Positions 903 through 41,237 of a DNA stretch of 64,000 nt are shown piece by piece. Position 1 is the stretch's first letter, and the number at the start of each line of letters is the position of its first letter. The notes below the pieces were generated by a model. The model saw only the letters and a program-made list of their open reading frames with translations. It was not told where the DNA came from and searched no databases. The translations under genes were made by a program, and so were the position numbers. The stretch comes from an uncultured Chloroflexia bacterium (lineage in GTDB: Bacteria; Chloroflexota; Limnocylindria; Limnocylindrales; CSP1-4). The stretch spans positions 607 to 64,606 of the forward strand of contig CAVONF010000003.1 of the NCBI GenBank assembly GCA_963697275.1, in the 5' to 3' direction.

Positions 903-1036
903 GGATGACGCCCACGGGGCGTTAGCACCCTGCTAGACAGCGGTGGGAGAATCGTGGCGTAGCGGGAGGCATTGAGACGCGGCCCCGTGGTGGCCGCCTT
1001 GGACCGCGCCGAGCCACTGGCGAACCCGGCCCGCCC
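903..1036 (+). promoter_or_regulatory. conserved leader element, diverged copy L10
   Basis: Retains GCACCCTGCTAG, GTGGCGT, AGCGGGAGGC, GACGCGGCCCC...TGGCCGCC..GGACCGCGCCGAGCCACTGGCGAACCCGGCCCGCC, with an extra ~11 nt in the 5' half. It ends 18 nt before ATG 1055. Confidence 0.6.
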
Positions 1037-2933: not shown

Positions 2934-3227
2934 TCATCGCTGCGCGCGCTCACGCCTCCGCCGCGAGGCACAGCGCGGCCCGCACAACACCGCCTGCCGG
3001 CGCCGACCGTCGAGCGACATGCCGCAGCAAGCGCAGATGCGTCCGGCAGGCCGGCGGCCGATGGCGGTGCGGTGGACCTCGCGCCAGACCAGGGGGCGGC
3101 CACGGCCGGGTCGGGCCTCGAGGTCGACGCCGCACTGGCGGCAGTGGCGGGGTGGGATGACCAGCGCCCGCAGCTGCGCCTTGCCCATCCGCGCCAGGGC
3201 CTCGAGGTCATCCATCACGGCCATCAT
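2934..3227 (-). CDS. small zinc-ribbon protein (CxxC...CxxC...C..RC), paralog of 12398..12691
   Basis: ORF 2934..3227, MMAVMDDLEALARMGKAQLRALVIPPRHCRQCG...CACCG...RRRQAVLCGPRCASRRRR. A second copy lies 9.5 kb away. Confidence 0.65.
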   Translation of the reverse strand: MMAVMDDLEALARMGKAQLRALVIPPRHCRQCGVDLEARPGRGRPLVWREVHRTAIGRRPAGRICACCGMSLDGRRRQAVLCGPRCASRRRRERAQR

Positions 3228-3305
3228 CCCATCGGGCGACCGGGTTTCCGCATCAATACGGCGTAATCAGGCGAAACGCGGCCGCGTGCGTTACGTGCGG
3301 CGTGG
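2934..3305. repeat. segmental duplication C, copy 1 (Zn-ribbon gene + upstream block + MFS 3' remnant)
   Basis: Aligns with 12398-12775. The block 3228-3300 is almost identical. 3253..3305 keeps only TTPHVT.AA.FRLITPY*, the C-terminus of the MFS gene intact in copy 2. Confidence 0.75.
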
Positions 3306-5509: not shown

Positions 5510-5632
5510 TTCGTGACGTGACCTCCGCCTCTTGCACCCCGTGCTACCGAAGCGGCACCCTCGCAGCAGAGCGGGAGGCCACGACGCACGGCCCACACCC
5601 TGGCCGCCGGGACCGTGTCAAGCCACTGGCGG
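5510..5632 (+). promoter_or_regulatory. conserved leader element L2 (variant, cargo displaced by IS)
   Basis: TTCGTGAC-GTGAC-CTCCGCCTCTTGCACCCCGTGCTACCG, then GAAGCGGCACCCTCGCAGC replaces the GTGGCGTCATAC box. The 3' half is intact through GCCACTGGCGG. Confidence 0.7.
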
Positions 5633-5664
5633 CCTGCCCGAGAGGTGACTCGGACCGAGACGTA

Positions 5665-7097
5665 CCGACGGGCGGAAGCATCCAATTCCCTGTGCTGCAT
5701 GGTCACGCGATGACGGCCAGGGACGCCGTGACATCGCGGATCGCCCGGCCCAGTAGCGGCCCCAGGTGCCGTTCAGACGGAGCAGCCGCAGCTGCAGCAG
5801 ATGGCTGACGCCACGCCGGAACCAGCTCATGCCACGGATCTTGAAGCGACGGGCGATGACGATGTCGACGCCCTTCTCCATGGGCCCTGAGCGGCCAGCG
5901 GCACGATGCGGTAGTTGGCGATGGCCCGGGCGTTGTTCGCGACGTAGCCGATGACGGCCCGACAGCGGGAGGCCTGCTCGGGGTCGTCCGTCTCGAGCGC
6001 GCGGGCATGGGCGCGCAGGATCGCCAGGAGCGCCTCGACATCGCCGGGGGCTGCCGCCCCCGGCGCCGCCGCGAGGACGTCACCGTGCTCGCGGCCGGTG
6101 CCGAAGCGGAGCTGCTCGACGAGGTGGTACCAGTCGAGCAGCTCGATCGCGTCGGGGAAGCTGCGCTCGCGGATCCATCGATCGCGGCGGCCCCGTCCGA
6201 CACGAAGAGGATGCGCCGGGCCTCGTAGACGCCCAGCTCCGCGCAGAGGGCGGTGAAGCGCTCCGCGAACGTCGTCCACGACCCGGTGTCGCCGACGAGA
6301 TGCCGGTCGAGGAGCCGGCGGCGGTCCTTGCCGATCCGCTCGACGCCGCTGAAGACGAGCCCGAGCTTGACCTCCAGGTGGGTGCCGGAGCCGCGGTCGT
6401 TGACCATCGTGCCGTCGGCCTGGACCCAGACGTCCTCCTCGGATGGGGCGAGCGTCGGGCCGCGCTCCGGGTGGGTCCCGAAGACCGCCTCCTGGCGGGT
6501 CGCGATCTCGGCCTCGAGGTGGGTCCCTTCCTCCTTCACCCAGGGGTGGAGCTGGCCGTGGCTGACCGGCAGGTCGCGCAGCTCATCGAGCGCTCGAGCC
6601 GTCCTGGCATAGGAGAGCTCGGTCACGAGCCAGAGGGCCCGCTCGCGGACCCCGAGGGTGTGCTGCACACGGGGCTCGAGGCCGAGCGCCGCGTCGAGGG
6701 GCATGACCTCGGCCCCACAGGCACCGCACCGATAGCGACGGCGGGAGAGCTCGACCTCGCCCGCGAGGGTGACGAGGCGACGGCGGGCCCGGCCGTTGGC
6801 CTTCAGGATGCCGCCGCAGTCGACATGCCCGCGGCCCACGACGAGCGCAGCCTCGAGCGCGCTGACGATCTCCCGCCACAGTCGCTCCCCGACCTCCGCC
6901 AGGCCAGCGCTGACGGCACGCTCGAGCGAGCCGATGTCGGCACCCTCCGGATGCAGCTCGATGGTGAGCGTGACCGGGACGGCGATAGACTGCATGGCGA
7001 GCCCCTTCGGTGCTGGTTCCAACACCTCCAGCGTACGGATGGGGCTCACCCTGTTCCCGCCGCGCCAGCACAGACGTTTGGATGCAAACCCGACGGG
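5665..7097 (-). mobile_element. insertion sequence, ISLre2 (UPF0236)-like
   Basis: Imperfect terminal inverted repeats: 5665-5697 CCGACGGGCGGAAGCATCCAATTCCCTGTGCTG versus the reverse complement of 7066-7097 CAGCACAGACGTTTGGATGCAAACCCGACGGG. They enclose a single transposase gene. Ends are uncertain by about 20 nt. Confidence 0.7.
5703..6995 (-). CDS. ISLre2-family transposase, at least 2 frame changes
   Basis: MQSIAVPVTLTIEL...RRYRCGACG...DGTMV...ILFVSDGAAAI (ORF 5703..7235), then LLDWYHLVEQL (5827..6279), then IARRFKIRGMSWFRRGVSHLLQLRLLRLNGTW (5618..5881). This motif order is typical of UPF0236/ISLre2 transposases. Confidence 0.7.
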   Translation of the reverse strand: MQSIAVPVTLTIELHPEGADIGSLERAVSAGLAEVGERLWREIVSALEAALVVGRGHVDCGGILKANGRARRRLVTLAGEVELSRRRYRCGACGAEVMPLDAALGLEPRVQHTLGVRERALWLVTELSYARTARALDELRDLPVSHGQLHPWVKEEGTHLEAEIATRQEAVFGTHPERGPTLAPSEEDVWVQADGTMVNDRGSGTHLEVKLGLVFSGVERIGKDRRRLLDRHLVGDTGSWTTFAERFTALCAELGVYEARRILFVSDGAAAIDGSASAASPTRSSCSTGTTSSSSSASAPAASTVTSSRRRRGRQPPAMSRRSWRSCAPMPARSRRTTPSRPPAVGPSSATSRTTPGPSPTTASCRWPLRAHGEGRRHRHRPSLQDPWHELVPAWRQPSAAAAAAPSERHLGPLLGRAIRDVTASLAVIA

Positions 7098-7106
7098 CTG
7101 GAGCTG

Positions 7107-7136
7107 TTGACAGCCCCTCGCGCGGTGGACTACCCT
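7107..7136 (+). promoter_or_regulatory. candidate sigma70-type promoter just outside the IS right end
   Basis: TTGACA (7107-7112), 18-nt spacer, TACCCT (7131-7136). Confidence 0.3.
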
Positions 7137-7287
7137 GCCGCCTTCTCGGTCGCGTGCGGCGGCCCCGGTGGCCTGGCCGATCCGGCGACCCACCGTGATA
7201 GGGGGCGCGTGGGGGGAGAAGGAGGGTGCCGTCATGGCCGCACCGCCACCACCCCTGGACCGTCCAAGAGAGCAGCGCGGCTAGCCA

Positions 7288-7860: not shown

Positions 7861-7979
7861 TTCGTGACCTCCGCCTCTTGAACGACGTGCTACCCCTGTG
7901 GCGTCATACGCAGCAGAGCGGGAGGCGATGACGCACGGCCCACACCCTGGCCGCCGGGACCGTGCCGAGCCACTGGCGG
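7861..7979 (+). promoter_or_regulatory. conserved leader element L3
   Basis: Full consensus with the TTGAACG variant of the -35-like box. It ends 29 nt before ATG 8009. Confidence 0.75.
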
Positions 7980-8008
7980 CGGCCCGTCGAGCGAGAAGGG
8001 TGCAGGCG

Positions 8009-8510: not shown

Positions 8511-8640
8511 CTCATGACCTCCGCCTCTTGCATCCGGAGCTACGTCCGTGGCGTCATACCCGACAGAGCGGGAGGCCATGACGCACGGCCCACGCCCTGG
8601 CCGCCGGGACCGTGCCGAGCCACTGGCGGGACCGGCCCGC
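8511..8640 (+). promoter_or_regulatory. conserved leader element L4
   Basis: CTCATGACCTCCGCCTCTTGCATCC...GTGGCGTCATAC...full 3' half. It ends 22 nt before ATG 8663. Confidence 0.75.
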
Positions 8641-8662
8641 GCATCGGGGAGGGGGTCTCAGC

Positions 8663-9408
8663 ATGCGTCAGCTCGTCTCCACAGCCCTCGTGGCCTGCAT
8701 CGTCGGGGCCCTTGCGGGGGCCAGCTTCGGAGCCATGGCCCAGGCCCCGGCCGAGCCACCGGTCACGACCACGGCGCTCAACGCGGATACGGTGGACCGC
8801 TTGAGCGCCGTCAAGGCCACGAGCAAGAAGGCCAGGCGCAAGAACAAGCTCGTGGCCACCGACTCGAAGGGCTTCCTGCCAGCCAACATCGTGAAGGCCA
8901 AGTGGGGCCTCATCGGCGGCAAGCCCGCCTTCCTGGCCGATGACCAGATCGCGTGGAACGAGGTCCAGGGCATCCCGGCGAGCCTCGCCGACGGTCAGAT
9001 CGGCTGGGCGAGGTGGCTGGCATCCCCGCGAGTCTCGCCGACGGGGTGGACGATGCCGGGGTGACGGGCCTCAAGGTCATCCGGGCGTACGGACCGGGCA
9101 CCACGATCTACGCCAATGCCACCGGCACGGCGTACGGCCGTGCCACCGTGACGTGCCCAGCGGGGTCCAAGGTCACAGGCGGCGGCTTCTTCGCGTCGAA
9201 CGCCCTCGACTTCCACCTGGGCACCTCCCTGCCGAGTGACACGACCACCTGGTACGTAGATGGCTACAACACCGAGCCCAATGGGGCTGGAGGCACCTCG
9301 GTCACCATCCAGGCCCTGGCCATCTGCATGAGCGTCGAGCCTGCGGGTGCCTTCACCTCGGCCAAGAAGGGCCCGCTGCCTGCCCGCGTGAAGCGGGCCC
9401 AGAAGTAG
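8663..9408 (+). CDS. secreted protein with tail-fibre-like W..(V/I).G(K/I)PA.LAD repeats, frameshift near 9005
   Basis: MRQLVSTALVACIVGALAGASFGAMAQAPA signal (ORF 8612..9064) joins ORF 8953..9408. It has three tandem repeats KWGLIGGKPAFLADD / WNEVQGIPASLADG / W(G)EVAGIPASLADG. Confidence 0.65.
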
Positions 9409-9489
9409 GGGTGACGGCTGGCGTGGCCATCGTGTGCTCCATCCCGCGAGGACTGTGCCACATCCCGTGTCGGACATGGCGCGAGGCAG

Positions 9490-9620
9490 GTCGTGACCTC
9501 CGCCTCTTGCACCCCGTGCTACCGATGTGGCGTCATACGCAGCAGAGCGGGAGGCCATGACGCACGGCCCACACCCTGGCCGCCGGGACCGTGTCGAGCC
9601 ACTGGCGGGACCGGCCCGCG
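9490..9620 (+). promoter_or_regulatory. conserved leader element L5
   Basis: Closest to the consensus. It ends 22 nt before ATG 9643. Confidence 0.75.
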
Positions 9621-9642
9621 TCGTGTGTCGGGGGGCAGCCTG

Positions 9643-10606
9643 ATGCGAAGGGTCGTACTGGGCGCGGCCGCGGTCGCGACCGGCACCGTGGTCTGGCTAC
9701 GCTCCGCAGGACGCCTCCGAGCGATGCCGAAGGCGGCCGCCGGTGTCTTCCCGAACGGCGTGCCATACACCCGGTGGGGCACGGCCGGCAAGAACCTCCT
9801 GTGGATTCGTGGGAGGTCCCGGCGAGTCAGCCCCGCGGGGACTGAGCGTGGTGCTGGCCAGGTTCTGGCTCCGACCGTACCTCGACAGCGGCTACACCGT
9901 CTGGATGGTGTCCCGGAAGCAGCACATGCCCATGGGCTACACCATCGCCGACATGGCCGAGGACTACGCGCAGCTGATCGCCGACCGCTTCGACGGTCGG
10001 ATCGACCTCGTGCTCGGAGAGTCCTACGGCGGCATGATCGGCTTCTGGCTGGCCGCCCGCCATCCGGAGTGCTTCGCTCACATCGCCATCGTCGCCGCCG
10101 GTGCCTACGTGCCCGATGAGCGCGCCCGGACGATCGACCTCGAGTTCGCCCGCTTGCTCGCGGGCCGGACCGGCGAGGCCGGGGCCCTACTGGTCCGGTT
10201 CCTCTACCCCGACATGCGCGTCCCGGGTGCGGCCCGGGTCGTCGGAGCGGTCCTGGGGCACCTCATGTTCGCGGAGACCCACCCCTACTACCGGCACGAC
10301 GTGCTGATCGAGGCCCAAGCCGACCTGGCGTTCGACGCCCGCGAGGTCCTGCCCGAGATCCGGGTACCCGTCCTGCTCATCGGCGGCGACCGCGACCAGT
10401 ACACACCGAAGTCGGTCTACGAGGAAACGGCGCGGCTCATCCCCGACTGCACGCTCGTGCTCTACGAGGGCAAGGACCACCTCGGAGCGATCAATGACAG
10501 GCGTCTGCACCGGGACGTGCTCGACTTCGTGGCGCGGCAGCCGAGGACCCGCTCGGCTGAACGGCCTCGCGGTCCGGTCCCTGAGCCGGTCGTCGGCAGG
10601 GCCTGA
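9643..10606 (+). CDS. alpha/beta hydrolase, N-terminal TM/signal anchor, frameshift near 9808
   Basis: [19 protein letters not shown] (frame of ORF 9493..10119) joins ORF 9743..10606, with nucleophile elbow GESYGG and the late motif GGDRDQYTP...GKDH. Confidence 0.75.
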
Positions 10607-10613
10607 CCGCTTG

Positions 10614-10745
10614 TTCGTGACCTCCGCCTCTTGCACCCGGTGCTACCGCCGTGGCCTCATACCCCACAGAGCGGGAGGCCACGACGCACGGCCCACGCCC
10701 TGGCCGCCGGGACCGTGTCGAGCCACTGGCGGACCCGGCCCGCCC
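10614..10745 (+). promoter_or_regulatory. conserved leader element L6
   Basis: Starts 8 nt after the hydrolase stop and ends 20 nt before ATG 10766. Confidence 0.75.
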
Positions 10746-10765
10746 GGGCTAGAGGGGGTGTCGTG

Positions 10766-11632: not shown

Positions 11633-12333
11633 ATGGAGACCGAGAACTGGTATCTCAATCACAAGTCCGAGATCATGCGGCAGGTGAGGCTCTTCGTCCG
11701 GCCCTGCAGGAAAGACCTTACCGAGGCCTACGGCAAGGCGGAGGGAGAGGCCATCGCCAAGGAGACGCTGCAGGGCCTCGAGGTCCTGCTCCCAGACCTC
11801 CCCTACATCGGCGGTGATGAGAACCGCCTCACCCAGGCCCTGTACGTGACGGCTGCCTGGCTGGCCATGTACCGCTCGCTCCGGGCGCGTGGGGCCTCGG
11901 TCGAGGAGGCCGCCCGCCTCATCTACCAGGGGACAGCGAGCTTCTTCGACAGCTTCCCGACACGCTGGCTCATGCGCTGGCAGGGCCGACGGATGCTCCG
12001 GCCGGAAGTTCCTCGAGCAGCGCAAGCACGTGGCCGCCATCAGCCAGCAACGCCGTTACCGCGGACGACTGGGTGTTCGAGTTCGTCGAGGGCGACGGGC
12101 ACGACTTCGCGTTCGGCGCGGACTACACCGAGTGCGGGGTCGTCAAGTACCTCGCCCGCGAAGGTGCCCCGGAGCTCGCTCCGTACCGGTGCTGGCTCGA
12201 CTACCCCCAGTTCGCCGCGATGCACCTGCGGCTCGACCGGACCGAGACGATCGCGCAGGGCGGGCAGCGCTGCGACTTCCGGGTCAGTCGGCGGAAGCCT
12301 GTGCAAGTCGAGCCGGAGTTCCTGCACGCCTGA
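11633..12333 (+). CDS. L-2-amino-thiazoline-4-carboxylate (ATC) hydrolase family protein, 2 frame changes
   Basis: AAGGAGG RBS, METENWYLNHKSEIMRQV (ORF 11585..12637) joins the 11889 frame and ORF 12073..12333 (CGVVKYLAREGAPELAPYRCWLDYPQF...TIAQGGQRCDFRV). Confidence 0.65.
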
Positions 12334-12344
12334 CGGACCCGGCG

Positions 12345-12397: not shown

Positions 12398-12691
12398 TCA
12401 CGCCCGGTGCGTCCGGCGCCTGACGCGCGAGCGGCAGCGCTCCCCGCAGACGACCGCCTGACGGCGCCGGCCGGCGAGCGACACGCCGCAGCCCGGGCAG
12501 ACGCGTCCGCCGGGACGGCGGCCGCTGGCGGTGCGGTGGGCCTCGCACCAGACCAGGGGGCGGCCAGAGCCCGATCGGGCCTCCAGCTCGACGCCGCACG
12601 CGCGGCAATGGCGAGGTGGGGTGACCAGCGCCCGTAGCTGCGCCGTGCCCAACCGCGCCACGGCCTCGAGGCCATCCATCACGACCATCAC
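12398..12691 (-). CDS. small zinc-ribbon protein, paralog of 2934..3227
   Basis: ORF 12398..12691, MMVVMDGLEAVARLGTAQLRALVTPPRHCRACG...CPGCG...RRRQAVVCGERCRSRVRRR. Confidence 0.65.
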   Translation of the reverse strand: MMVVMDGLEAVARLGTAQLRALVTPPRHCRACGVELEARSGSGRPLVWCEAHRTASGRRPGGRVCPGCGVSLAGRRRQAVVCGERCRSRVRRRTHRA

Positions 12692-12775
12692 CCCAACGGG
12701 CGACCGGGTTTCCGCATCAATACGGCGTAATCAGGCGAAACTCGGCCGCGCGCGTAACGTGCGGCGTGGTCAGAC
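12398..12775. repeat. segmental duplication C, copy 2
   Basis: See 2934-3305. Here the upstream block overlaps the intact 3' end of the MFS gene. Confidence 0.75.
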
Positions 12776-26301: not shown

Positions 26302-26598
26302 TTGGTGAGCCAGCGACGCCGCTATCCGGACGACTGGGTGTACGAGGTCGTCGAAGGTGACGGGCACGACTTCGACTTCGGCGTGGACTACACCGAGTGC
26401 GGGATCGTCAAGTACCTCGCCCGCGAAGGTGCCCCGGAGCTCGCGCCGTACCTGTGCTGGCTCGACTATCCCCAGTTCGCCGCGATGGGCCTGCGGCTCG
26501 ACCGGACCGAGACGCTCGCCCAGGGGGGCCAGCGCTGCGACTTCCGGCTCAGTCGCGGGCAGCCCGTGCAGGTCGAGCCGGAGTTCCTGCACGTCTGA
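26302..26598 (+). pseudogene. C-terminal fragment of a second ATC-hydrolase-family gene
   Basis: ORF 26302..26598 aligns with residues from ...QQRRYPDDWV to the stop of the 11633..12333 gene. The N-terminal two thirds are absent. Confidence 0.7.
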
Positions 26599-26711
26599 CG
26601 GACGTTTCCGCGAAACTCGGCTGCGCGCGCAAGCGGCCACGGGGTCCCCGGGCGCCGATATCGTTCATTCGTGGGTACCCCCGGGGGTCAGCCCGGATCG
26701 CCCCGCTGCGC

Positions 26712-28950: not shown

Positions 28951-28991
28951 GTAGGAGTCAACACGCTGACGCCAGACAGCGGGTCGATAGT

Positions 28992-29075
28992 CATGGTGAG
29001 CGGGAGGCGTCGACGCACGGTCCACACCCTGGCCGCCGGGACCGTGACGAGCCACGGGCGGACCCGACCCGCGCA
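28992..29075 (+). promoter_or_regulatory. conserved leader element L8, 5'-truncated
   Basis: Homology starts at CAT-GGTGAGCGGGAGGC. The whole TTCGTGACC...GTGGCGT part is replaced by the HNH remnant. The 3' half is intact, ending 17 nt before ATG 29093. Confidence 0.7.
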
Positions 29076-29092
29076 GGCGAGGGGGGCGAACC

Positions 29093-29895
29093 ATGCGCAG
29101 GCTGTGGGCCGTGGGAGCGGCCATCATGCTGTGCCTCGCGCTTCGGTCGCCGGTCGTCGGGCAGGAGGCTGCAACGAGTTGAAGTGCCGACCTGCCGGTG
29201 GCAGACGTGCATCCCGAGGTCCTGGTGGACCTGGAATGGGTCGCCGCGCACCTTGACGACCCGACCGTGCGGATCGTGGACGCTCGAATCAGCTGGCCGG
29301 CCTACTCGATGGGCCACATCGCCGGTGCTGTCTCCATCGACATCTTCGACGAGCTCTGTTGCCCCTCCCACATCATGGATGCCGAGCCGTTCGCGAAATC
29401 GATGGGCGAGAAGGGCATCGGAGATGACACGACCGTGATCGTGTACGACACCGAAGGCGGGACGTGGGTCGCCCGGCTGTGGTGGGCATTGCGGTACTAC
29501 GGCCACGAGGAGGCCAAGCTCCTCGACGGCGGCCTCCGTGCCTGGGAGGCCGGCGGTCTGCCGCTCGAGACGGAGGCGCCGGTCATCGAGCCGGCGATCT
29601 TCACGGCCCAGATCCAGCCCCAGTGGTACGCCACGATGGACGACGTAAGGGCCGCCATCGACGATTCCGACATCAGCATCGTGGATGCCCTGCCCGCCGA
29701 TAGCCACGCCGACGAGCACATCCCCACGGCTGGAAGCTCCCGGCACGGGAACTGCTCGACTGGACGGGAGTGGTCAAGGGAGCCGAGGACCTCTCGGCCA
29801 TGCTAGTTGGCGGGGCGCTGACCCAGCGGACGAGCGACCCTTCGAACCCGGTGGAGGGCGGGTCGCAGGCATCGCTCCTGGATGCGCGTCCCTGA
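29093..29895 (+). pseudogene. rhodanese paralog, frameshifted and lacking the catalytic-Cys segment
   Basis: MRRLWAVGAAIMLCLAL signal, then a stop. ORF 29198..29806 matches domain 1 of the 1055 gene. Domain 2 jumps from ...LSAML to TSDPSNPVE, so no CGGG loop is present. Confidence 0.7.
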
Positions 29896-30666: not shown

Positions 30667-30796
30667 TTCGTGACCTCCGCCTCTTGAACCATCTGCTAGC
30701 CCTGTGGCGTCATACCCGGTGAGCGGGAGGCGATGAGGCACGGCCCATGCCCTGGCCGCCGGGACCGTGCCGAGCCACTGGCGGACCCGGCCCGCG
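30667..30796 (+). promoter_or_regulatory. conserved leader element L7
   Basis: Full consensus with the TTGAACC variant. It ends 19 nt before ATG 30816. Confidence 0.75.
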
Positions 30797-30815
30797 TCTA
30801 GGGGGGAGCTGAACC

Positions 30816-37951: not shown

Positions 37952-38107
37952 TTCGTGACGTCGGCGGACGCCCGTGGCGCCACGCGATGGCCGGAGCGTG
38001 GCGAAGGTGACCCGCGACTCTTGTGCCAACCGCTACCCCCGTGGCGTCATAGGCACCAGAGCGGGAGGCGACGACGCGCGGCCCACGACCTGGCCGCCTG
38101 GTCGTAC
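37952..38107 (+). repeat. conserved leader element L9, degenerate with 47-nt insertion
   Basis: TTCGTGAC-[47 nt]-GTGACCCGCGACTCTTGTGCC...CGTGGCGTCATAGGCACCAGAGCGGGAGGCGACGACGCGCGGCCCACGACCTGGCCGCC. The 3' part has diverged and no GCCACTGGCGG is present. Confidence 0.6.
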
Positions 38108-38869: not shown

Positions 38870-39736
38870 CTATGGCGCCGGTCGGAACCCGAACCCGGCC
38901 AGGACCGCCTGCGCGTCCGGCCCGGTGAGGAAGGACAGGAACTCCGAGGCGAGCCCGGGATGTGGCGCATCGATGGTGGCCACGGCCGCGTACGTGGCCG
39001 GTACGTTCGCGGCGTCCGGGATGGCCACCGTCTCGACCAGCTCGGAGGCCGCCGCATCGGTCGCGTACACGATGGCCGCGTCACCCTCACCCAGTTCGAT
39101 CTTCGCGAGCACCGCGCGCACGTTGTCCTCCTCCGACACGGTGTTCGCCGTGACGGCGGCGACGAAGTCGGCCGGGTAGTCAGGCAGTGAGGCGAGGTTC
39201 TCGATGGCCTCGGTGGCGTAGCGCGTGATGGGTGCCTCCGGACCGGCCATCACGTAGCGCACGCCGGGGCGCGCCAGGTCCGCCGCAGTCTCGATGCCGG
39301 CGGGGTCGCCCGACGGCACCACCACGACCAGGGCATTGCCGGCGAAGGGCGTGATGGGCGCCGGGGCCAGGCAGGCGTCCACGAGCAGCTGGGCGTTGCG
39401 GGTGTCCGCCGACGCCAGGACGTCCGCAGGTGCGCCCTGTTCGATCTGGGCGCGCAGGGCGCTCGAGGCGTCGAAGGAGAGGATGAGCGTGGACCCGGGG
39501 TGCGTCGTCTCCCACGGGCCAGCGAGGGCTTCGAAGGCGTCCCGCAGCGAGGCCGCCGCGTAGACGGTCACATCGGCTACCTCGGCAGCGGCGCCTGGGC
39601 TCTCTGCCGCCACCGGTTCGATCGGTGGGCAGCTCGGCAGCGGTGACGGCGACTGCGCCGACGCGGGGCTGGCCACGATGACCGCCAGCCAGAGCGCGAG
39701 AGCGACACCCGGGTGGCGCAGGCGTGGAACGAGCAT
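38870..39736 (-). CDS. modA: molybdate ABC transporter substrate-binding protein
   Basis: Intact ORF 38870..39736 with a signal peptide, VYAAASL, LSFDASSAL, ADVLASAD and IVYATDA. Confidence 0.85.
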   Translation of the reverse strand: MLVPRLRHPGVALALWLAVIVASPASAQSPSPLPSCPPIEPVAAESPGAAAEVADVTVYAAASLRDAFEALAGPWETTHPGSTLILSFDASSALRAQIEQGAPADVLASADTRNAQLLVDACLAPAPITPFAGNALVVVVPSGDPAGIETAADLARPGVRYVMAGPEAPITRYATEAIENLASLPDYPADFVAAVTANTVSEEDNVRAVLAKIELGEGDAAIVYATDAAASELVETVAIPDAANVPATYAAVATIDAPHPGLASEFLSFLTGPDAQAVLAGFGFRPAP

Positions 39737-39788
39737 GGCGCCCTCCTTCGGTGGCGTTCGATAGCAGGAATCTGGCCATCTGCACCAG

Positions 39789-39812
39789 ATTGTATTGTGC
39801 GAACATACGCAC
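39789..39812 (-). promoter_or_regulatory. candidate modA promoter -10 (TACAAT) with adjacent GTGCG-N6-CGCAC inverted repeat
   Basis: On the minus strand, GTGCGTATGTTCGCAC (39812-39797) sits 2 nt before TACAAT (39794-39789), in the only AT-rich stretch of the modB-modA spacer. Confidence 0.35.
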
Positions 39813-39865
39813 GTACCATGTACCTGGCTCGGCGATGTGTCGAGCGGCCGAGGGCCCTCAGCCGG

Positions 39866-40742
39866 TCAGGTGGGCAACACCGCGCGCCAGTGGGTCAGGC
39901 GAACCGCGAGGAGGACCCCGATGGCCGCTACGACGAGCACCGTGGCCGCGGCCAGGGCGGCGTCGAGGCTGCCCTGGAACTCGCTGTACACCAGCAGCGG
40001 CAGCGTGCGCGTCCGGCCAGCCACGTTGCCGGCGAACATGATCGTGGCCCCGAACTCGCCCAGCGCCCGCGCCCAGGCCAGCACCAGGCCGGCGGCCAGG
40101 GACGGAGCAGCGAGCGGGATGGTGACGTGCCGGATGGTGCGACCGCCCGAGGCACCGTCGACGGCGGCAGCCTCCTCGAGGTCCCGCTCGATGCCTTCGA
40201 AGCCGGCCCGGGCGGCCCGGATGTAGAAGGGCGCCGCGACGAAGACCTGGGCGACCACCACGGCGAGGGTGGTGAACGGGATCGTGAGGCCGACCAGCTC
40301 GAGGCTGGGGCCCACCAGACCACGGCGTCCGAAGGCGAGCAGCAGGGCCAGGCCGGCCACCGTGGGCGGCAGGACGATGGGCAGGTCGACGAGGGTCTCG
40401 GCGACGGCCTTGCCGCGGAAGGATCGCCTTGCGAGGACCCACGCGAGAGGCGAGCCGAGCACGACGACGGTGACGACCGCGACCGTGGATGCCACGAGGC
40501 TCAACGCGAGGGCCTCGAGCACGGCCCCGAGTGGGGCACCAGAGAGCCCACCGCCGAGCAGGCCACGCAGCAGCAGGGCGACCACCGGCAGGGCCAGGAA
40601 GAGCAGGCAGATCGCGGCAAGCGTCCCGGTGCCGAACCGGGCGACCCGACCGTTGCCCGGCAGCCCGGGAGCCCGCCCGCGATCGTCGGCCGCCCGGTCC
40701 CCGGCGATGCGCGCTGGGTCCGGTGTGGACGCTGACGTTCAT
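39866..40742 (-). CDS. modB: molybdate ABC transporter permease, frameshift near 40700
   Basis: ORF 39866..40585 (LPIVLPPTVAGLALL, EEAAAVDGASG, LGEFGATIMFAGN). Its N-terminus continues upstream in-frame without a start, and ATG 40742 lies in the neighbouring frame. Confidence 0.8.
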
Positions 40743-40817
40743 GGATGGGTGCCCGTGGGGGTCCCGCGGCCGGGGGAGCGCAGGCCTGTGAGCCAGGTCA
40801 GATCGCGGCCCGCCAGG

Positions 40818-41237
40818 TCACCCGGGCACCTCGACGATGACGTTCGTCGCCTTCACGACACAGACGGCCTCGGAGCCGACGTCCAGTCCGAGCTCGTCGA
40901 TGGCTTCGGCGGTCATCAGGCTCACGACACGGTGCGGGCCGGCCTGGACCTCGATGAGCCCGACGATGGCGTCGCGCTCGATGCGCGTCACGATACCGAC
41001 GAAGCGGTTGCGCGCCGACTGCGCCACGATGGGTCGCTCCTGGCCGGCCCGGCGACGGTCCGCGAGGAGATGTGCGACGTCCGCCCTGCGGACGAGGCGC
41101 TGGCCGCCGGGGGAACGCTCGGCCGGGAGCAGTCCATCGTCCGACCACCGCCGGACCGTGTCCGGGCTGACCCCCAGGATCTCGGCCGCCTCGCCCAGCC
41201 GAATGCGTTCCTCATCCCTGGCGCTCGATTTGTTCAT
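40818..41237 (-). CDS. excisionase/MerR-type HTH + TOBE (Mop) molybdate-sensing regulator
   Basis: ORF 40818..41237: LGEAAEILGVSPDTVRRWSDDGLL, then SARNRFVGIVTRIERDAIVGLIEVQAGPHRVVSLMTAEA...VVKATNVIV. Confidence 0.75.
   Translation of the reverse strand: MNKSSARDEERIRLGEAAEILGVSPDTVRRWSDDGLLPAERSPGGQRLVRRADVAHLLADRRRAGQERPIVAQSARNRFVGIVTRIERDAIVGLIEVQAGPHRVVSLMTAEAIDELGLDVGSEAVCVVKATNVIVEVPG

Follow-up and report, generated by a model that had tools for sequence, protein, structure and literature searches.

A repeated variant c-di-GMP-II riboswitch with a putative ECF-type promoter in an uncultured Chloroflexota bacterium

Does the leader at positions 9490-9645 of the DNA studied here hold a new kind of translational switch or an already known RNA? 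The stretch analysed (the window) comprises 64,000 nucleotides (nt) of contig CAVONF010000003.1 from an uncultured Chloroflexia bacterium. Its G+C content is about 70%, and a unit of about 170 nt recurs along it, with 9490-9645 as one of the copies. Two hairpins had been predicted here in an initial annotation, hairpin 1 pairing an upstream CCUCC with an internal GGGAGG, and CCUCC was proposed to alternate between this decoy and the genuine Shine-Dalgarno (SD) sequence of the following gene. We find that 9490-9645 is a new member of a known riboswitch family. Taken as a whole it is probably a promoter-plus-riboswitch unit, consisting of a promoter that resembles those of extracytoplasmic function (ECF) sigma factors and an aptamer through which a ligand would control access to the SD sequence.

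The Rfam 15 covariance models were run over the whole window at their curated gathering thresholds. Nine matches were found to the sibling families RF03169 (c-di-GMP-II-GAG) and RF03170 (c-di-GMP-II-GCG) of clan CL00127. The best of them, 9541-9625 on the + strand, matches RF03169 with 67.8 bits against a gathering score of 40 bits (E = 2e-11 for the whole window) and covers the full model (positions 1-86 of 86), so that it is assigned to the GAG type of the variant c-di-GMP-II class. The other eight are also on the + strand, at 956-1040, 2138-2220, 5565-5643, 7912-7993, 8562-8646, 10665-10749, 28994-29078 and 30717-30801, and a tenth + strand copy at about 38055-38100 is truncated and gives no Rfam match; the copies are named below by their first positions. 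These variants were reportedly defined by Weinberg et al. in PNAS in 2017. They are set apart from c-di-GMP-II since their putative ligand-contacting nucleotides differ, and binding of c-di-GMP can therefore not be assumed for them. We know of no established ligand for RF03169 or RF03170, and none is reported in the literature searched, where the two families appear in lists only.

The element at 9541-9625 folds as a variant c-di-GMP-II aptamer, with a P1 helix of 5 base pairs (bp), a P2 helix of 3 bp, the hairpin P3 and a predicted pseudoknot that joins the loop of P3 to the 3' junction, all on the + strand. The 5' strand of P1, GCGGG (9547-9551), pairs with CCCGC (9615-9619). It is followed by an A (9552) that is bulged in the Rfam model and by the 5' strand of P2, GGC (9553-9555), which pairs with GCC (9598-9600). 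P3 occupies 9562-9594, where 9562-9569 pair with 9587-9594, and its loop carries the two pseudoknot strands CUGG (9576-9579) and CGCC (9581-9584). Both are complementary to the 3' junction GGCG-GGA-CCGG (9604-9614), in which CCGG (9611-9614) and GGCG (9604-9607) are their respective partners and the A at 9610 is the nucleotide that marks the subtype. The parent family, c-di-GMP-II (RF01786), belongs to the same clan and has the same overall architecture, in which helices are combined with a loop-to-3'-tail pseudoknot; the variant models outscore it on the copies studied here, and it drops out of the scan output as the lower-scoring clan member. With the two variant families themselves the copies share P1, P2, P3, the conserved junctions and the sense-strand position in the 5' leader, and nothing structural differs apart from a P1 that is effectively limited to 5 bp. 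What does differ is their number and their hosts: ten copies occur within 64 kb, and the hosts among the matches listed are almost all uncultured soil Chloroflexota.

Both subtypes are represented in the window. A comparison of the consensus sequences of the two families gives GGCGAG-A-CCG for RF03169 and GGCGAG-C-CCG for RF03170. The 9541 copy reads GGCGGGACCGG, which makes it an A type, in agreement with its best score. Copies 2138, 10665, 28994 and 30717 are of the C type and score best with RF03170. Copy 956 is of the C type by its junction nucleotide (GGCGAACCCGG) and yet scores best with RF03169, a mismatch which shows that the separation by the two sibling models is not a clean one. Within one cluster, aptamers of the A type (GGCGrrACCG) stand mixed with those of the C type (GGCGrrCCCG).

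Homologs were collected with a degenerate aptamer pattern, which recovers all nine full copies of the window and for which zero chance matches are expected. A search of a species-representative genome collection with this pattern found at least 119 loci with at least 141 further copies. The set analysed below contains 150 copies in all, including those of the window, and its genome part consists of the matches listed. The listed loci are nearly all metagenome-assembled genomes (MAGs) of soil Chloroflexota (Limnocylindria or "uncultured Chloroflexia"), often with several copies per locus, and the nearest locus among the matches listed is 87% identical to the window. An origin from Streptomyces or another actinomycete, which 70% G+C might suggest, was rejected on this host range. 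A few aptamers were found in MAGs labelled Acidimicrobiia, Actinomycetes, Thermaceae, Isosphaeraceae, Armatimonadota and Patescibacteria (loci L007, L026, L065, L076, L096 and L111), and these could be cases of horizontal transfer or of binning contamination. Two of them, L007 and L065, are the most divergent sequences in the alignment of the 148 distinct listed copies (A1).

The fold was evaluated on A1 against slid-register controls and 500 column shuffles, with five measures. Under the Rfam fold with its pseudoknot, 79.6% of the cells hold standard pairs, compared with 30-39% when the 3' partners are slid, and none of the 500 shuffles equals the observed value in any of the five measures. 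The aptamer fold also outperforms the controls on two smaller alignments of copies that carry the conserved upstream block described below, one of 21 copies (A2) and one of 53 (A4). P3 contributes the clearest compensatory changes: it is 85% paired, five of its eight pairs change on both sides, and at columns 26 and 62 double-sided changes were found in 22 cells, 19 of which have A-U in place of the common G-C. The C.A mismatch of this hairpin (columns 30 and 58) is replaced by U-A in 32 copies and by C-G in 16. Hairpin 2 of the initial annotation therefore proved to be a real helix, since it is the P3 of the Rfam model in the same register, C.A mismatch included, and it covaries in 148 copies. 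The substitutions that had been pointed out between window copies were largely borne out as well. The C to T change opposite the unpaired A was seen in copies 2138 and 28994, and the G to A change in TCGTG in copy 8562. The change in CACGG/CCGTG is also real, as CGCGG/CCGCG in copy 956, and is not present in the truncated copy 38055, where it had been placed.

The remaining helices are maintained with less variation. The inner five pairs of P1 are standard in 73-96% of the copies (93-99% at the inner four), whereas the six outer "pairs" of the Rfam model are only about 38% paired, which is near random. P2 is paired in 148 of 148 copies and is invariant, so it yields no covariation signal. For the pseudoknot, the CGCC/GGCG helix (helix 5) keeps its complementarity in 99% of the copies and the CUGG/CCGG helix (helix 4) has three of its four pairs well kept; the columns of both are almost invariant and show no covariation. 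P1, P2 and P3 are therefore all maintained among the homologs, P3 by compensatory changes.

This fold also accounts for GGGAGG. The string is invariant in all 148 copies of A1, where its GGG belongs to the inner part of P1 (paired with CCC at 9615-9617), its A is bulged and the GGC that follows is P2 (paired with GCC at 9598-9600). GGGAGG is thus the invariant 5' core of the aptamer and pairs downstream, as a strand of P1 and P2, rather than serving as a decoy SD. Its invariance is explained by the aptamer because the string is equally invariant in copies that lack the upstream block.

The same observations bear on a reading at the DNA level, in which hairpin 1 would be a substrate for single-stranded DNA recombination, like the attC sites of integrons, and the repeats would be cassette boundaries. 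A repeat of about 170 nt does stand before several small genes of the same strand, and it does contain an imperfect hairpin. The repeat is, however, accounted for by a curated RNA family that covaries on the + strand only. The window genes scanned include no integrase, no RYYYAAC/GTTRRRY core sites of the attC type lie at the arms, single copies occur in many genomes, and the window array is interrupted by opposite-strand genes and does not form uniform cassettes. We regard this origin as hardly conceivable. A reading of the unit as a miniature inverted-repeat transposable element with terminal inverted repeats was likewise rejected, as its ends are not inverted repeats.

Upstream of the aptamer lies a conserved block, 9488-9538 in the 9541 copy. 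Its 5' part gTCGTGACCTCCGCCTCTTGCACC (9488-9513, + strand) contains the CCUCC arm (9497-9501) and a -35-like TTGCAC(C) (9507-9513), and its 3' part is a GTGGCGTCATAC box (9527-9538, + strand) whose CGTC (9531-9534) is a candidate -10 element of the ECF type, 18 nt past the xAC of the -35-like element. The family consensus of the 5' part is TTCACGACCTCCGACTCT-TGAACC, and that of the full block, from the 53 sequences of A4, is GCCTTCACGACCTCCGACTCT-TGAACC-N17-CGTC-ATAC. Eight of the ten window copies keep the block, as do 53-64 units that come from metagenomes and other genomes. Among 64 units its conservation begins abruptly about 10 nt before GACCTCC, and further upstream only 0.04-0.08 bits per position were found. 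With no conserved sequence upstream of the block, the module has no other promoter that could transcribe the block.

ECF sigma promoters carry a conserved AAC in the -35 element and a CGT, often CGTC, in the -10 element (PMC3426412, PMC5758882), with an AAC-to-CGT spacing of 14-17 bp (PMC5758882). The family consensus TGAACC-N17-CGTC and a short 5' untranslated region beginning a few nucleotides downstream are similar to these promoters, and the block of the 9541 copy reads TTGCACC-N17-CGTC. Unlike them, the blocks have an 18-nt spacing, the 9541 copy has CAC, and strong additional conservation (TTCACGACCTCCGACTC) extends 17 nt upstream of the -35 element. Judged from these motifs, the block appears to be an ECF-type promoter element acting at the DNA level. 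A canonical sigma70 promoter was also considered and rejected, as the spacer from TTGCAC to TCATAC is 20 nt and a scan finds nothing.

Copies without the block provide an indication of where transcription would start. At least 34 listed copies have a sigma70-like -10 hexamer, [GT]AnAAT, at -16 to -11 from GGGAGGC, followed by a conserved tAGC; in many copies this hexamer ends 9-11 nt before the aptamer, and window copies 956 and 28994 are of this kind. Such a placement points to a start about 3 nt before GCGGG, which agrees with a P1 that does not exceed 5 bp. In block-bearing copies the GTGGCGTCATAC box sits where the other copies have their sigma70-like -10 hexamers. By this comparison the 9541 copy would be transcribed from about 9541-9547, approximately where the Rfam match begins, with CCUCC at about -44. 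Subtype and upstream class were found to correlate among 146 listed copies, C-type aptamers occurring with the ECF-like block and with the sigma70-like -10, and A-type aptamers with other boxes. We also observed that copies without the block (window 920-955 and 28960-28993; loci L036, L039, L049 and L112, for example) share a different upstream motif, TGGAC(R)-N7-8-GAnAAT, in which the TGGAC(R) box is only 7-8 nt upstream of the sigma70-like -10 and thus too near to be a -35 element.

The block is occasionally found on its own. Four cases without an aptamer were found, in L013 (- strand, 2464), L016 (+4604 and +6708) and L070 (+4786), with the form GACCTCCGnCTCTTGnAC...GTGGCGTC; the one in L013 lies about 35 nt before an SD sequence and a start codon. 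In an independent metagenome sample, on the other hand, the aptamer follows 39 of 40 boxed blocks. The block thus usually travels with the aptamer, and its autonomy, for which there are these four genome cases, is given less weight here. Both the abrupt onset of conservation and the occurrence without an aptamer speak for a role of the block at the DNA level.

The block might instead be a DNA-level regulatory site of another kind, such as an operator or a site for an activator next to a promoter that is not of the ECF type, in which case CCUCC would still have no functional RNA partner. It contains an imperfect inverted repeat (TTCGTGA-N9-TCTTGAA), its most invariant positions are G.CTCT.G and GAC with no canonical -35 element, the 9541 copy has TTGCAC and not TGAAC, and the 18-nt spacing from AAC to CGT is long. 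Conservation that reaches 17 nt upstream of the -35-like box, and the absence of an ECF sigma gene nearby among the window ORFs (open reading frames) scanned, would also suit such a site. The inverted repeat is weak, however, with five of seven positions matching, and the ECF signature is well matched by the TGAACC...CGTC consensus and by where it lies with respect to the aptamer start. We consider a non-ECF site unlikely, and an ECF-type promoter remains the preferred assignment of the block.

Hairpin 1 joins this block to the aptamer. Its arms, 9491-9507 and 9544-9560, do allow 14 pairs as initially described, and RNA 9487-9562 folded alone adopts the hairpin with -32.3 kcal/mol (z = -2.1; 8 of 200 shuffles are as stable). 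The minimum free energy (MFE) structure of the full 174-nt RNA also includes it, but this RNA is as stable as its shuffles (z = -0.13). Moreover, among random 24-mers drawn from the window, 2.3% equal or exceed the block (-20.1 kcal/mol) in binding to the aptamer 5' strand. The complementarity is thus barely unusual for DNA of 70% G+C and not clearly beyond chance.

No covariation of hairpin 1 was found in the block-bearing copies of A2 or A4. In A2, 82.8% of the cells are paired compared with a shuffled mean of 83.0%, and 340 of 500 shuffles reach the observed value; in A4, which includes the metagenome units, the values are 84.4% and 84.2%, with 174 of 500 shuffles reaching it. Cells with changes on both sides number one in A2 and four in A4. 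Two of the outer pairs fail to form in 40 and in 27 of the 53 copies of A4, the AGAG partner of CUCU is absent from most block-bearing copies, and the variable aptamer-side positions (the NNN of GGC-NNN-GA) have no compensation in the upstream arm. What remains is the complementarity of CCUCC with GGAGG and of CUC with GAG, which joins two nearly invariant strings. A small hairpin within the variable patch (UGCUAC/GUGGCG) was also considered and, by inspection of A2 and A4, is not kept in other copies.

The toggle of the initial annotation requires the block to be transcribed, so that CCUCC could move between the internal GGGAGG of hairpin 1 and the true SD sequence as an on/off translational switch. 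The 14-bp complementarity and the isolated fold, its presence in the 174-nt MFE structure, the high conservation of both arms in 53 units, the tight linkage of block and aptamer and an upstream gene without a terminator are all in its favour. It fails on several grounds, however. No covariation was found in 21 or 53 copies, and the outer pairs are mostly unpaired. Of the 150 listed aptamers, 123 lack CCTCC in the 70 nt upstream and many have a -10 hexamer that ends 9-11 nt ahead of the aptamer, and in L053 and L076 an otherwise retained block has GGATG or GAATG in place of CCTCC. GGGAGG is invariant for reasons of the aptamer, in block-free copies as well, the DNA upstream of the block holds no conserved element that might act as a promoter for it, and comparable pairing with the aptamer strand is found in the 2.3% of random 24-mers mentioned above. 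The arm itself lies about 44 nt before the probable start. We consider this toggle improbable. Hairpin 1 is probably an incidental complementarity, without evolutionary support, whose upstream arm is likely untranscribed.

The gene that the aptamer precedes starts at ATG 9643 and extends to 10606 on the + strand. It encodes an alpha/beta-hydrolase (Pfam Abhydrolase_1 and Hydrolase_4) with a signal-peptide-like N-terminus. Its SD sequence is the G-run GGGGGG at 9630-9635 (+ strand), 7 nt before the start codon and 10 nt past the 3' strand of P1; it lies about 80 nt past GGGAGG and not the 60-70 nt given previously. The hydrolase is split between frames, with the ATG in frame 1 reading to about 9808 and the body at 9743-10606 in frame 2, whereas in L097 and L056, where the gene likewise follows an aptamer, one frame holds both N-terminus and body. 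Many riboswitch-associated genes of the window, this one included, are split in this way or end within a few codons (9643/9743 with its junction at about 9808, 29092/29198, 30816/30868, 2236/2472, 8663/8953 and 10765); they are either a pseudogene cluster or the result of indel errors in a long-read assembly.

An ORF preceded by an SD sequence was found 30-41 nt after GGCG in 128 of the 150 listed copies, and a crude test assigns a signal-peptide-like N-terminus to roughly two thirds of the encoded proteins. Pfam matches of these products include SRPBCC/Polyketide_cyc2 (ten), SAM-methyltransferase (nine), SnoaL-like (four), beta-helix/NosD (three) and rhodanese (two), while most products have no Pfam match. 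A broad regulon with many apparently exported products is expected of a riboswitch that senses a signal rather than one that serves a single pathway. Second-messenger riboswitches typically control secreted or surface proteins, and the regulon observed here is diverse and largely secreted.

No terminator-like site was found in 9350-9700, and translational control is therefore the natural reading. The arrangement resembles that of translational riboswitches that sequester the SD sequence, with the P1 3' strand 10 nt from the SD, no terminator and a start codon 7 nt past the SD. It is unlike them in that no covarying anti-SD helix could be defined in the copies studied here; the sole trend, a weak one, is towards the 3' strand of P1. 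This strand, CCCGC (9615-9619), may be the likeliest alternative partner for the SD: when 128 copies are folded as unconstrained ensembles, no other aptamer segment pairs with the SD as often (0.11 of 0.34). When the aptamer is enforced, SD accessibility increases in 57 copies, decreases in 21 and is unchanged in 50. Across the family this modelling weakly favours an ON switch in which P1 competes with the SD, and this serves as the working model. An attempt to read the switch direction of the 9541 copy from SD accessibility gave a weak and contradictory result. We also observed that many copies of different genomes have GCGCAUGAG as the linker that leads from the 3' strand of P1 to the SD (A1 columns 86-105; for example in L012, L013, L016, L027, L089, L115 and L116), which could reflect a part of the expression platform or shared ancestry.

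The promoter-plus-riboswitch unit would then operate as follows. The block at 9488-9538 would act as promoter DNA of the ECF-sigma type, with TTGCAC/TGAAC as -35 and CGTC as -10 element. Transcription from about 9541-9547 would leave the CCUCC arm outside the mRNA, and its complementarity to the aptamer 5' strand would then be incidental, the by-product of two G+C-rich sequences that are each under constraints of their own. A ligand, plausibly a cyclic dinucleotide or a related signal, would stabilise P1 and the pseudoknot, which would alter the availability of CCCGC for pairing with the SD and so control translation. A ligand-driven translational switch, as had been suggested, is plausible at the 9541 copy, where an RNA of a riboswitch family stands just before the SD sequence and start codon; the part of that suggestion that is not supported is the anti-SD/decoy mechanism.

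Several observations weigh against this account. The promoter is read from sequence, and a simple sigma70 scan of the block finds nothing. The -35-like box of the 9541 copy has CAC rather than AAC, and the AAC-to-CGT spacing of 18 nt is at or just beyond the 14-17 bp of ECF promoters (PMC5758882). A non-exhaustive scan of about 40 window ORFs found no ECF sigma gene; the same scan found no GGDEF/EAL or other cyclic-nucleotide genes. Enforcing the aptamer in the 9541 copy lowers SD accessibility from 0.62 to 0.25, the opposite of the direction favoured across the family, although the modelling is weak. The tight linkage of block and aptamer (39 of 40) is also predicted by coupling at the RNA level. 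Finally, no terminator was found from the stop of the upstream gene (9408) to the block, so that read-through RNA with CCUCC is possible, for which folding predicts hairpin 1.

These last points could be turned into a separate proposal, according to which the block insulates the riboswitch from read-through. On transcripts that arrive from the upstream gene, the CCUCC arm would capture the invariant GAGCGGGAGG strand of the aptamer and disable ligand sensing, and riboswitch control would be confined to transcripts from the unit's own (ECF-type) promoter, with the two inputs combined. Same-strand tandem units without terminators (8562, 9541 and 10665), a hairpin 1 that would dominate the folding of read-through RNAs and the tight linkage of block and aptamer are consistent with it. 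Hairpin 1 shows no covariation, however, the block also precedes genes that have no aptamer, and read-through itself is hypothetical. We regard the capture of the aptamer strand, and equally the restriction of ligand control to the unit's own transcripts, as very improbable, and prefer the unit in which the block is promoter DNA and the arm lies outside the mRNA.

Two of the window copies show signs of decay. Copy 5565 (5565-5643) has the lowest score (41 bits), a deletion in the 3' junction and no downstream gene. It is directly followed by a 510-aa ORF on the - strand (5703-7235) that matches UPF0236, a transposase family of the ISLre2 type, and an insertion sequence may have destroyed the gene that this copy regulated. 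In the unit at about 38007-38100 the block is mutated (GTGACCCGCGACTCTTG), the aptamer ends after the P3 loop and no plausible ORF was found behind it. Segmental duplications with 71-91% identity were also observed, between about 950-2000 and about 28990-29860, between 2953-3252 and 12417-12716, and between 12062-12338 and 26327-26603; among them are two fragments that resemble ATC_hydrolase and a second rhodanese locus, which has an aptamer of its own. A molybdate-type transport cluster at 38870-41237 on the - strand, with a solute-binding protein (SBP_bac_11), a BPD_transp_1 permease and a ModE-like regulator combining a MerR helix-turn-helix with TOBE, appears unrelated to the riboswitch units.

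The question raised by this locus is thus answered in favour of a known RNA: a new anti-SD/decoy-SD switch does not hold, and what lies there belongs to a curated riboswitch family. This family is greatly expanded in uncultured soil Chloroflexota, with ten copies in 64 kb and at least 141 further copies in at least 119 loci. The riboswitch often travels with what appears to be a dedicated ECF-like promoter and stands before diverse genes that it would control, among them those for SRPBCC, SAM-methyltransferase, SnoaL-like, rhodanese, hydrolase and beta-helix proteins. This regulon and the two co-occurring subtypes provide concrete material for a search for the ligand, and may offer an entry to signalling of the second-messenger type in a phylum for which hardly any genetics exists.

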